64,000 nt of DNA from Escherichia coli (GTDB lineage Bacteria; Pseudomonadota; Gammaproteobacteria; Enterobacterales; Enterobacteriaceae). Every line of letters starts with the position of its first letter. Position 1 is the first letter of the stretch. The notes beneath the pieces were generated by a model that made no database searches, had not been told where the DNA came from, and worked only from the letters and a program-made list of their open reading frames with translations. Below are positions 42,025 through 47,025 of this stretch, piece after piece. The stretch is from NCBI RefSeq assembly GCF_013315695.1, contig NZ_CP054353.1; one strand, given 5' to 3'. The position numbers and the translations under genes were made by a program.

Positions 42025-45000
42025 ATGAACAAAATTTTTAAAGTTATCTGGAATCCAGCGACGGGCAGTTACAGCGTTGCCAGCGAAACGGCGAAAAGTC
42101 GTGGGAAGAAGAGCGGGCGCAGTAAGCTGTTAATTTCTGCACTGGTTGCGGGTGGATTATTGTCGTCGTCTGGGGCATTAGCTCAGGCAGGGTTAGATAC
42201 AGGTACTGGTGTTACCCCTGCTGGTCATAATAATGGAACAGGTTGGATAGCTATTGGTACCGATGCTGAAGCAAGCACTCATACCACAACGAATGGCGCA
42301 GCAACTGCCGTGGGCTACTACTCCAAAGCGTTAGGTATGTGGAGTACTGCGTTAGGTGCATATAGCGAATCGAATGGCAATGCTTCACTGGCTCTTGGGG
42401 TTAAAGCACAATCTAACGGTGACCGCTCTATTTCGATGGGCGCTTCGTCGAGTGCAAGCATAAATGCGGGTTACTCCATCGCGATGGGGGTATTTGCTTT
42501 CACCGATGCAGAGTACGCGGTAGCCCTTGGCAATGAGAGCAAGGCACTTGGTAAATACAGCCTTGCATTAGGAAACGCAAGTCAGGCATCTGGCGAATCC
42601 AGTATTGCATTAGGTAACACAAGTGAAGCCAGCGAACAAAACGCGATTGCGCTGGGGCAAGGCAGCATTGCGAGCAAAGTGAACTCAATCGCGTTGGGCA
42701 GTAACAGTTCGTCTGCAGGAGAGAATGCCATCGCGCTAGGAGAGGGCAGTGCCGCGGGAGGCAGCAACAGTCTAGCTTTCGGTAGTCAATCCAGGGCAAG
42801 CGGCAATGATTCTGTCGCCCTCGGTGTAGGGGCTACAGCAGCGACCGACAATTCTGTCGCTATCGGCGCAGGATCGACCACTGATGCAAGCAATACAGTT
42901 TCAGTTGGCAACAGCACAACAAAACGCAAAATTGTTAATATGGCTGCCGGTGCCATAAGCAACACCAGTACCGATGCCATCAACGGCTCACAGCTTTATA
43001 CGATCAGTGATTCAGTCGCCAAACGGCTCGGGGGAGGCGCTACTGTAGGCAGCGACGGCACCGTAACCGCACTAAGCTACGCGTTGAAAAGCGGCACCTA
43101 TAATAACGTGGGTGATGCTCTGTCAGGAATCGACAATAATACTCTGCAATGGAATAGAACCGCGGGGGCATTCACCGCTGCACACGGCTCAAATACCACC
43201 AGTAAAATCACTAATGTTGCTAAAGGTACGGTTTCTGCAACCAGCACCGATGTAGTAAACGGCTCTCAATTGTACGACCTGCAGCAGGATGCTCTGTTGT
43301 GGAACGGCACCGCGTTCAGCGCCGCACACGGCACCGACGTCACCAGCAAAATCACCAATGTCACCGCTGGCGAACTCTCTGATACCAGCACCGACGCCGT
43401 CAACGGTTCTCAGCTGAAAGCGACCAAGGACGATGTGGCGGCAAACACCACCAACATCACTAACCTGACGAGCGAAGTGGCTGGCAACACCACCAGTATC
43501 ACTAACCTGACTGATACGGTGACTAACCTCGGTGAAGACGCCCTGAAATGGGACGACGCCGCAGGCGCATTCACCGCTGCACACGGCACTAACGCCACCA
43601 ACAAAATCACCAATGTCACCGCTGGCGAACTCTCTGATACCAGCACCGACGCCGTCAACGGTTCTCAGCTGAAAGCGACCAAGGACGATGTGGCGGCAAA
43701 CACCACCAACATCACTAACCTGACGAGCGAAGTGGCTGGCAACACCACCAGTATCACTAACCTGACTGATACGGTGACTAACCTCGGTGAAGACGCCCTG
43801 AAATGGGACGACGCCGCAGGCGCATTCACCGCTGCACACGGCACTAACGCCACCAACAAAATCACCAATGTCACCGCTGGCGAACTCTCTGATACCAGCA
43901 CCGACGCCGTCAACGGTTCTCAGCTGAAAGCGACCAAGGACGATGTGGCGGCAAACACCACCAACATCACTAACCTGACGAGCGAAGTGGCTGGCAACAC
44001 CACCAGTATCACTAACCTGACTGATACGGTGACTAACCTCGGTGAAGACGCCCTGAAATGGGACGACGCCGCAGGCGCATTCACCGCTGCACACGGCACT
44101 AACGCCACCAACAAAATCACCAATGTCACCGCTGGCGAACTCTCTGATACCAGCACCGACGCCGTCAACGGTTCTCAGCTGAAAGCGACCAAGGACGATG
44201 TGGCGGCAAACACCACCAACATCACTAACCTGACGAGCGAAGTGGCTGGCAACACCACCAGTATCACTAACCTGACTGATACGGTGACTAACCTCGGTGA
44301 AGACGCCCTGAAATGGGACGACGCCGCAGGCGCATTCACCGCTGCACACGGTACTAACGCCACCAACAAAATCAGCAACGTACAAGCTGGCATAGTCTCC
44401 TCTGACAGCACTGACGCCATAAATGGCTCACAACTTTACGGTTTGGCTGATTCATTCACGTCCTATCTGGGTGGTGGTGCTGATATTAGCGATACAGGTG
44501 TATTAACCGGGCCAACCTATAGTATTGGCGGCACTGACTACACTAACGTCGGGGATGCTCTGGCTGCGATTAACACTTCATTTAGTGATTCTCTCGGTGA
44601 TGCTCTGCTCTGGGATACAACCGCAGGCAAATTCAGCGCCAAACACGGCATTAATAATGATCCCAGTGTAATCACTGATGTTGCAAACGGTGCAGTCTCG
44701 TCCACCAGTAGCGACGCTATTAACGGTTCGCAACTTTATGGCGTTAGTGACTACATTGCCGATGCTCTGGGCGGGAACGCTGTGGTGAATGCGGACGGCA
44801 GTATCACTACACCGACTTATGCCATAGCGGGTGGAAGTTACAACAACGTTGGTGACGCACTGGAAGCGATCGATACCACGCTGGATGACGCCCTGCTCTG
44901 GGATGCGACAGCCAATGACGGTGCTGGTGCATTCAGCGCCGGTCGCGGGGTAGATAACACCGCCAGTAAGATTACTAACGTCGCAAATGGTGCAATCTCT

Positions 45001-47025
45001 GCCACCAGCAGCGACGCGATTAACGGCTCACAACTCTATACCACCAATAAGTACATCGCTGATGCGCTGGGCGGTGATGCAGAAGTTAACGCTGACGGCA
45101 CTATCACTGCGCCGACTTACACCATTGCAAATACCGATTACAACAACGTCGGTGAAGCTCTGGATGCGCTTGATGAGAACGCGCTGCTGTGGGATGCGAC
45201 CGCCAATAACGGCGAAGGGGCTTACAACGCCAGTCATGATGGCAAAGCCAGCATCATCACTAATGTCGCTGATGGTAATATCGGGGAAGGCAGCACCGAT
45301 GCTATCAACGGTTCTCAGCTGTTTAACACCAATATGCTGATCCAGCAGAACAGCGAAGTCATTAATCAGCTTGCTGGTAACACCAGTGAAACCTACATCG
45401 AAGAAAATGGTGCAGGTATTAACTATGTGCGTACCAATGACACCGGTTTAACCTTCACCGATGCCAGCGCACAGGGTGTTGGCGCTACAGCAGTGGGTTA
45501 TAACTCTGTTGCTTCCAAAGCCAGCAGCGTAGCCATTGGTCAGGACAGCCGCAGCGAAGTTGAGACGGGTATCGCCCTGGGTAGCAGTTCCGTTTCCAGC
45601 CGTTTAATAGTTAAAGGTTCTCGTGACACCAGCGTGTCGGAAGAAGGTGTTGTGATTGGTTATGACACAACTGATGGTGAACTGCTTGGCGCATTGTCGA
45701 TCGGTGACGATGGTAAATATCGTCAAATCATCAACGTAGCCGATGGTTCCGAAGCCCATGACGCCGTTACGGTTCGCCAGTTGCAAAACGCTATTGGCGC
45801 GGTCGCCACTACGCCAACCAAGTACTATCACGCCAACTCAACGGCAGAAGACTCACTGGCAGTCGGTGAAGACTCGCTGGCAATGGGCGCAAAAACCATC
45901 GTTAATGGTAATGCGGGTATTGGTATCGGCCTGAACACTTTAGTTCTGGCAGATGCGATTAACGGTATTGCTATCGGTAGCAACGCGCGTGCAAACCATG
46001 CAAACAGCATTGCAATGGGGAATGGTTCTCAGACTACCCGTGGTGCGCAGACCAACTACACCGCCTACAACATGGACGCACCGCAGAACTCTGTGGGTGA
46101 GTTCTCTGTCGGCAGTGAAGACGGTCAACGTCAGATCACCAACGTCGCAGCAGGTTCGGCTGATACCGATGCGGTCAACGTGGGTCAATTGAAAGTAACG
46201 GACGCGCAGGTTTCCCAGAATACCCAGAGTATTACTAACCTGAACAATCAGGTGACGAATCTGGATACTCGCGTTACCAATATCGAAAACGGCATTGGCG
46301 ATATCGTAACCACCGGTAGCACCAAATACTTCAAGACCAACACCGATGGCGTAGATGCCAACGCGCAGGGTAAAGACAGTGTTGCGATTGGTTCTGGTTC
46401 CATTGCTGCCGCTGACAACAGCGTCGCGCTGGGTACCGGTTCCGTGGCCAACGAAGAAAATACCATCTCTGTGGGTTCTTCTACCAACCAGCGTCGTATC
46501 ACCAACGTTGCTGCAGGTGTTAATGCCACCGATGCGGTTAACGTTTCGCAGCTGAAGTCTTCTGAGGCAGGCGGCGTTCGTTACGACACCAAAGCTGATG
46601 GTTCTATAGACTACAGCAACATCACTCTCGGTGGTGGTAATGGCGGTACGACTCGCATCAGCAACGTCTCCGCTGGCGTCAACAACAACGACGCAGTGAA
46701 CTATGCGCAGTTGAAGCAAAGCGTGCAGGAAACGAAGCAATACACCGATCAGCGGATGGTTGAGATGGATAACAAACTGTCCAAAACCGAAAGCAAGTTG
46801 AGCGGTGGTATCGCTTCTGCAATGGCAATGACCGGTCTGCCGCAGGCTTACACTCCAGGTGCCAGTATGGCCTCTATTGGTGGCGGTACTTACAACGGTG
46901 AATCGGCTGTTGCTTTAGGTGTGTCGATGGTGAGCGCCAATGGTCGTTGGGTCTACAAATTACAAGGTAGTACCAATAGCCAGGGTGAATACTCCGCCGC
47001 ACTCGGTGCCGGTATTCAGTGGTAA
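42025..47025 (+). CDS. upaG: trimeric autotransporter adhesin, UpaG/EhaG/SadA-like
   Basis: 1666 aa; extended signal peptide ([20 protein letters not shown]…); many SIALG/AIALG head repeats; recurring neck motifs ([18 protein letters not shown]); YadA-like C-terminal anchor ending …[11 protein letters not shown]; sits between yibL and lldP. Confidence 0.9.
43351..44370 (+). repeat. four perfect 255-bp (85-codon) tandem repeats inside the adhesin stalk
   Basis: Identical units begin at 43351, 43606, 43861 and 44116; the last unit has one mismatch near its 3' end. Confidence 0.9.

Follow-up and report, generated by a model that had tools for sequence, protein, structure and literature searches.

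How well can an adhesin gene that is itself undamaged be used once the gene in front of it has been broken? The question is raised by a stretch of 64,000 nucleotides (nt) of Escherichia coli DNA (NCBI RefSeq assembly GCF_013315695.1, contig NZ_CP054353.1; hereafter the window), in which a long open reading frame (ORF) lying between yibL and lldP had been predicted, from the letters and their translations alone, to encode a large trimeric autotransporter adhesin. On the evidence of its sequence, this ORF is undamaged and represents an allele of the UpaG/EhaG/SadA adhesin of enterobacteria, a trimeric autotransporter of the type Vc secretion class, and the locus is a damaged sadBA-type operon from which a functional, periplasmic, trimeric SadB helper cannot be made. 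We consider it very probable that the locus as a whole combines an intact adhesin allele with a sadB gene broken by the insertion sequence IS1, which would leave an adhesin that is competent but less transcribed and less displayed.

The ORF begins with ATG and, in the ORF listing and its translation, is free of internal stops (none in 1666 codons). Pfam, run on the protein as two overlapping halves, resolves the following parts within the gene:

42025..47025, + strand: trimeric autotransporter adhesin gene, intact, 1666 amino acids, an allele of the upaG/ehaG/sadA positional orthologue group
42025..42168, + strand: extended signal peptide region (ESPR), residues 1-48 (Pfam PF13018, E 2.1e-15)
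42301..42915, + strand: N-terminal YadA-like head, residues 93-297 (eight Pfam YadA_head matches)
46840..47022, + strand: YadA-type membrane anchor, residues 1606-1666 (Pfam PF03895, model positions 1-60 of 60, E 2.5e-19)

Signal cleavage is likely after ALA, at about residue 53. Beyond the N-terminal head, three more YadA_head blocks are found at about residues 1149-1175, 1309-1335 and 1442-1486, and some 18 YadA_stalk (neck) matches are spread along the passenger. Our own regular expressions for the neck, DALL, FGG and HANS motifs under-detected necks, and the Pfam stalk matches and fragments from the Protein Data Bank (PDB) were used instead. The passenger matches passenger structures of SadA, BpaC, AtaA, UspA1 and YadA and so has a modular build of heads, necks and coiled coils. 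At the other end of the protein, a gapless alignment to the crystallised translocator of Hia (2GR7/3EMO; E 2e-18, 38/88 identical) covers the final 88 residues, which finish, as Hia does, in a terminal aromatic residue (QW); the AtaA and YadA anchors are also matched, more weakly than that of Hia. The anchor is predicted to supply four beta-strands per chain to a 12-stranded trimeric barrel. A YadA-type anchor, a Sec signal with an ESPR and a modular passenger, three features of type Vc secretion, are all present.

The identification offered in the original prediction is thus borne out by an uninterrupted 1666-codon ORF in which ESPR, head, neck/stalk and anchor are found by Pfam. That prediction had named two observations that would speak against it, a C-terminus failing to model as a YadA-type anchor and a pseudogene in related strains. 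What is seen is a match to the complete anchor model together with the gapless Hia alignment, both sequence-based, and a gene that is intact in the closest relatives: it is annotated as intact, with no pseudogene, in two near-identical genomes and in AF10, GF131 and Z1002. Membership of the Ata, EmaA, BimA, YadA and Vomp families was considered and rejected, the NCBIfam matches being domain-level and sub-threshold (score against cut-off: Ata 326 vs 2500, EmaA 275 vs 3000, YadA 126 vs 750, Vomp 321 vs 500).

If it behaves like other members of its family, the ESPR leader would take each chain through the Sec pathway, and BamA/BamD would join the C-terminal anchors of three chains in the outer membrane as a single 12-stranded barrel. 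The passenger would then be threaded outward and fold into a trimeric fibre, longer than 100 nm, in which heads, necks and coiled coils alternate. Aggregation, biofilm formation and attachment to cells and extracellular matrix would be expected of such a fibre. Its binding specificity would be set by the variable N-terminal head and its length by the number of 85 amino acid modules in the stalk.

The position of the gene identifies its closest relatives. Megablast of window positions 39300-48000 against 5426 complete E. coli genomes, the set to which all counts of complete genomes refer, gives the locus order mtlD-mtlR-yibT-yibL-[DUF3251/SadB lipoprotein]-[trimeric autotransporter adhesin]-lldP-lldR. 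In the window, yibL occupies 39827..40189 and lldP begins at about 47323, with the adhesin gene between them, and upaG of CFT073 and ehaG of O157:H7 lie in the same yibL-lldP slot, just as had been predicted for a counterpart of UpaG, EhaG and SadA. In global alignments the adhesin is 85% identical to UpaG (aligned columns) and 76% identical to EhaG. The last 566 residues (1101-1666) reach 96% and 91%, respectively, and the head (residues 61-330) 73% and 52%, this being the region most variable between alleles. Crystal fragments of the SadA fibre, from the Tübingen group, map to residues 1249-1592 (E 1e-139 to 1e-91), with 2YO0/2YO1 matching best at E 1e-139, followed by 2YO3, 2YNZ, 2YO2, 3ZMF and 2YNY. 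It is the shared mtlR-yibT-yibL-[sadB-adhesin]-lldP slot, taken together with the sequence identity to UpaG and EhaG, that establishes positional orthology.

Alleles in this group range in length from 1377 to 1821 amino acids. UpaG of E. coli CFT073 (WP_001033292.1, 1778 amino acids) shares with the window the slot, the upstream DUF3251/sadB gene and the ESPR-head-stalk-anchor plan, and its first 12 and last 8 residues are those of the window adhesin. The window head is shorter than that of UpaG and 73% identical to it, the window stalk has 85 amino acid modules where all UpaG copies have fewer than 60/85 identical residues, and the sadB-type lipoprotein gene that is disrupted by IS1 in the window is intact in CFT073 (684 bp). 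EhaG of E. coli O157:H7 (WP_001033191.1, 1588 amino acids) is likewise a positional orthologue of the same architecture, with a C-terminal third that is 91% identical, but differs more in the head (52%) and over the protein (76%). UpaG, EhaG and SadA have been described as positional orthologues active in aggregation, biofilm formation and extracellular matrix binding, with differences in tropism attributed to their passenger domains; a preference for intestinal cells is reported for EhaG and one for bladder cells for UpaG (PMC7247748).

In Salmonella enterica (SadA PDB 2YO0-2YO3, 2YNY, 2YNZ, 3ZMF; SadB 4C47), the sadBA operon is flanked by the mtl and lld operons (PMC3953254), as is the window locus. 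The window differs in that its sadB is split, with the coiled-coil stalk and the link to the lipid anchor deleted, so that the helper half of the pair is missing. The nearest alleles, 99.8-99.9% identical, are those of MSB1_4I (WP_151309632.1, 1666 amino acids) and AF10 (WP_114504699.1, 1581 amino acids). MSB1_4I has the same IS1::sadB junction as the window and an adhesin that differs by three residues, all inside the repeat array of the stalk. AF10 has an intact sadB without IS1 and one 85 amino acid module fewer than the window.

The damage to sadB can be read from three adjoining segments:

40748..40816, + strand: 5' stub of a sadB-type gene, 23 codons (MNLKKTLLSVLIIVPLCLLAGCD), with signal peptide, lipobox cysteine (LAGC) and aspartate
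40817..41584, + strand: IS1 (IS1A-like), 768 bp, in the same orientation as the adhesin gene
41585..41981, + strand: sadB 3' remnant, 397 nt, equivalent to nt 288-684 of the intact gene

AF10, CFT073, O157, Z1002 and GF131 all carry a lipoprotein gene of 669-684 bp placed 43 bp 5' of the adhesin gene; the protein encoded by the AF10 gene matches Salmonella SadB (PDB 4C47) over its whole mature length (E 1.6e-69). In the window, no intact sadB-type gene lies directly upstream. The stub is identical to the first 69 nt of the intact AF10 sadB (L003 2949..3632), runs into IS1 and stops 8 codons later. The remnant encodes the C-terminal globular domain only (residue 97 onward), with neither signal peptide nor coiled coil, and the best product it could yield is a leaderless C-domain started from a TTG in the IS1 end; RefSeq flags it as a pseudogene in MSB1_4I. 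NCBIfam gave zero matches to the remnant, which was identified instead by alignment to intact alleles and to 4C47. Mapping to the AF10 and CFT073 loci shows that the 218 bp between stub and remnant (nt 70-287), which encode the trimerising coiled coil, are deleted. With a signal-peptide stub on one side and a leaderless, coiled-coil-free remnant on the other, no functional SadB can be expected. The loss of sadB is secondary damage and carries no weight against orthology.

IS1 itself is readily recognised: its ORFs insA (40872..41147) and insB' (41066..41569), both on the + strand, are both matched by the NCBIfam model transpos_IS1, its terminal inverted repeats agree at 18/23 positions, and RefSeq annotates an IS1A family transposase with programmed frameshift. 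The original prediction had listed the element as accessory DNA beside the adhesin. It is indeed there, but it is not merely adjacent, since it interrupts and partly deletes a co-operonic sadB gene that had gone unrecognised.

A simple IS1 insertion is expected to leave a target-site duplication of 8-9 bp. One was looked for at the flanks, GGGTGTGAC and CGCGGCACA, which differ, and none was found; as 218 bp are missing in addition, more than a simple insertion must have taken place, and we infer either an adjacent deletion by IS1 or recombination between two IS1 copies. The event appears to be recent and confined to one lineage, given that both IS1 junctions are found in only two of the 5426 complete genomes and that the window is 99.977% identical to MSB1_4I over the whole 64 kb. 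Precisely where the deletion joins, at the second base beyond the right end of IS1 (41586), the window has G and intact sadB alleles C (CGCGGCAC vs CCCGGCAC). At the left junction, the stub and the IS1 left end together (40748-40843) form a 31-codon ORF, MNLKKTLLSVLIIVPLCLLAGCD followed by GDAANLLI, with nine residues after the cysteine, and a tiny lipopeptide of 31 residues could be made from it, driven by the native promoter.

The region in which that promoter would lie is as follows:

40191..40747, + strand: putative regulatory region, rich in AT, in front of the sadBA-type operon; AF10 and CFT073 share it

The AT-rich character noted for the 5' side in the original prediction is real, the GC content being 0.41-0.42 over 39500-41000. 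The sole strong sigma-70-like site of the locus, predicted by consensus match, falls here (TTGACA-18-TAAAAT, 40528..40557, 11/12 positions). A scan of the interval between the IS1 end and the adhesin ATG (41585-42024), again by consensus matches only, found no promoter site, and an Rfam scan of 39300-47400 gave zero matches. The 768-bp IS1 thus now separates the adhesin gene from its only strong promoter-like site. IS1 insertions are classically polar in both orientations.

What the loss of SadB would mean for the adhesin can be gauged from work on Salmonella and on E. coli K-12 derivatives. The sadB and sadA genes form an operon, and SadB raises both the amount of SadA at the surface and its integrity (PMC3953254), the effect on display being about three-fold (PMC11054257). 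SadA made alone in SadB-lacking E. coli K-12 derivatives nevertheless reaches the surface and drives biofilm formation (PMC7940764), and increased stickiness was noted when SadA was made without SadB (Grin et al.). In the window strain, the adhesin would on this basis still be competent, its transcription would be lowered by IS1 polarity, and its display would be several-fold less efficient than in relatives with an intact operon. The adhesin is probably functional; that it is less transcribed and more poorly displayed is what we infer.

Several points weigh against the reduced output that we propose. The adhesin gene could still be transcribed, from a promoter within the remaining 3' end of sadB, by read-through out of IS1 or by host transcription running into the element. 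UpaG-type genes are reported to be repressed by H-NS even with an intact operon (PMC5012682, citing Totsika 2012), and if an intact operon is silent anyway, IS1 may change little in laboratory conditions. The requirement for SadB was measured on Salmonella SadA and is carried over to the E. coli allele by analogy. The paralogue YajI might compensate in part for the missing helper. The polarity of IS1 is a premise taken from classical genetics.

Taken to their end, the first of these points would make the event neutral: the adhesin gene would either have a promoter of its own, within the sadB remnant or the 43-bp spacer, or be reached by read-through from IS1, and SadB would be dispensable. The surface exposure and function of SadA without SadB in K-12 derivatives (PMC7940764) fit such an account, as do the orientation of IS1, which is that of the adhesin gene, and the report for other IS1 copies that host transcription can enter the element (PMC12428005). 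The adhesin ORF, moreover, is intact in all three genomes carrying the IS1 junction, although with 99.977% identity to MSB1_4I this may merely reflect how recent the event is. Between 41585 and 42024, however, the consensus scan found no promoter-like site, and SadB is credited with the three-fold gain in display and the better integrity already cited (PMC3953254, PMC11054257). Neutrality is accordingly a possibility to be kept in mind, albeit an unlikely one.

IS1 is not the only insertion sequence to have struck this locus. In CFSAN061768 (L011 3501-6770), ISEc12, of the IS21 family, lies in sadB beside an adhesin coding sequence of 1821 amino acids that carries no pseudogene flag, and in APEC E18055 (L010 5438-7700) sadB and the greater part of the adhesin gene have given way to IS91. 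Lesions of this kind, together with the absence of the whole pair from K-12 and of any match from some 23% of complete genomes, could be taken to mean that the locus is decaying, with the loss of helper and promoter as the first step towards a pseudogene of an adhesin that is no longer needed, a fate comparable to the K-12 deletion. The 5-kb ORF in the window, however, has neither stop nor frameshift, and disruption of sadB is rare (seven partial matches among 1878). We regard decay, too, as unlikely.

The same lesions can be read in the opposite sense. Insertion of IS1 might be adaptive and de-repress the adhesin, either by disrupting the AT-rich DNA to which H-NS would bind upstream or by giving rise to a hybrid promoter, much as happens at the silent bgl operon. 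UpaG is among the H-NS-repressed autotransporters listed in PMC5012682, the H-NS-silenced bgl operon is activated by IS1 and IS5 insertions (PMC12428005, PMC9678765), and two independent insertions in sadB, those of IS1 and ISEc12, spare the adhesin gene. At the right IS1 junction, though, no hybrid promoter is detectable, the element sits inside a coding gene of the operon rather than upstream of its promoter, and the lineage is very rare (2/5426 genomes), all of which makes an adaptive insertion improbable. We attach as little weight to the broader proposal that adhesin-sparing insertions in sadB (IS1, ISEc12) represent a recurrent adaptive switch, uncoupling the adhesin from an H-NS-silenced promoter and from its helper; were it true, the switch would alter the timing, amount and conformation of the fibre that is displayed. 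An intact adhesin with reduced transcription and display thus remains the reading that we prefer.

The adhesin itself is known, widespread and well characterised, and roughly three in four E. coli genomes carry it. The final 1.1 kb of the gene finds a match in 4154 of the 5426 complete genomes, always on the chromosome and in single copy in all but one of them, and it is the remainder (~23%) that has zero match to this 3' end. In K-12 MG1655, yibL and lldP are only 371 bp apart. Homology between K-12 and the window breaks off with the yibL stop codon (40190) and is found again from 47047, 22 bp past the adhesin stop, so that 6856 bp of the window (40191..47046) stand against 95 bp in K-12. One feature beyond this boundary is shared:

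47049..47078, + strand: terminator-like hairpin, with a stem of 13 bp and then a T-run, 24 bp past the adhesin stop; kept in K-12

The 95 bp that K-12 has in place of sadB and the adhesin gene (L004 5030-5124) are unrelated to them and resemble repetitive extragenic palindromic (REP) sequence, GCCGCATCCGGCAAG.

The original prediction had reckoned with about 7 kb of accessory DNA relative to a yibL-lldP backbone. As a size difference from K-12 this is right, but the gain that it implies is probably not. In Escherichia, Shigella and Salmonella alike, the mtl and lld operons flank a sadBA pair, and a deletion has been described for K-12 (Grin et al., PMC3953254). The hairpin kept in K-12, the 95-bp scar and the presence of sadBA in related genera together fit a deletion in K-12 better than a gain; the locus is more likely to be ancestral, with losses in some lineages, than to be an island that the window strain acquired. 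A horizontally acquired island was therefore rejected as an account of the locus, in the light of prevalence, the K-12 scar and the published description (PMC3953254).

The window allele also departs from the named adhesins in its stalk. A tandem array was delimited there with Tandem Repeats Finder (TRF):

43311..44378, + strand: tandem array of a 255-bp (85 amino acid) stalk module, 4.2 copies, 98% matches

Copies 2-4 are identical at 255/255 nt and copy 1 at 248/255. Every module has a DALxW and an AFTAAHG motif, together with a neck and a coiled coil rich in asparagine. Counted at a threshold of 60/85 identical residues, the units are distributed as follows:

Window and MSB1_4I: 4 units
AF10: 3 units
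GF131: 1 unit
UpaG, EhaG and Z1002: 0 units

The comparison of length and repeat content with UpaG and EhaG that had been suggested as a check thus gives 1666 vs 1778 vs 1588 amino acids and 4 vs 0 vs 0 units. The change in stalk-module number is very recent. Over the 64 kb, the window and MSB1_4I differ at 14 nt, of which 11 fall within the adhesin tandem array (window 43690-44292), a clustering that would be explained either by gene conversion between units or by mis-polishing of the repeat in one assembly. Differences concentrated in this way are as typical of the second as of the first, and one could go further and suppose that the three identical 255-bp units arose in assembly or polishing and that the true copy number or sequence is different. 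The separate MSB1_4I assembly, however, gives an equal gene length (1666 amino acids), and AF10 and GF131 differ from the window by clean whole units, in frame. There is in our view little likelihood of such an artefact. The differences of whole 255-bp units among close relatives indicate that fibre length changes quickly.

Minus-strand ORFs inside the adhesin gene (for example 43189..44385, 398 amino acids) were also considered as genes and rejected as by-products of the repeat and of skewed composition. Over the tandem array, four antisense ORFs of 81-82 amino acids form a ladder with steps of 255 bp (within 43410-44420, - strand), and both this ladder and the 398 amino acid antisense ORF coincide with strong negative GC skew and positive AT skew.

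As the adhesin is already known and ordinary, what is added here is the destruction of sadB by IS1 and the recent change in stalk modules, neither of which is a new kind of system. The family has been characterised and proposed as a vaccine antigen, and the significance of the locus beyond annotation is small. Since a perfect adhesin ORF is here found in a broken operon, counts of 'upaG/ehaG-positive' strains as a virulence marker can mislead unless the helper gene and promoter region are checked as well. The window strain and AF10, which has an intact operon and an adhesin 99.9% identical, form a natural pair for assessing the contribution of the E. coli SadB homologue and of the native promoter.

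Two further features of the window lie away from this locus, with coordinates transferred from, or annotation taken from, MSB1_4I. A gene for a Fic family protein is located between yiaY and aldB (approx. 26766-28061, - strand; coordinates from the collinear MSB1_4I annotation). A cluster encoding a glycoside hydrolase family 127 protein, a major facilitator superfamily (MFS) transporter and an AraC-type regulator (approx. 16724-21155) is placed between yiaT and an L-ribulose-5-phosphate 4-epimerase gene annotated araD.

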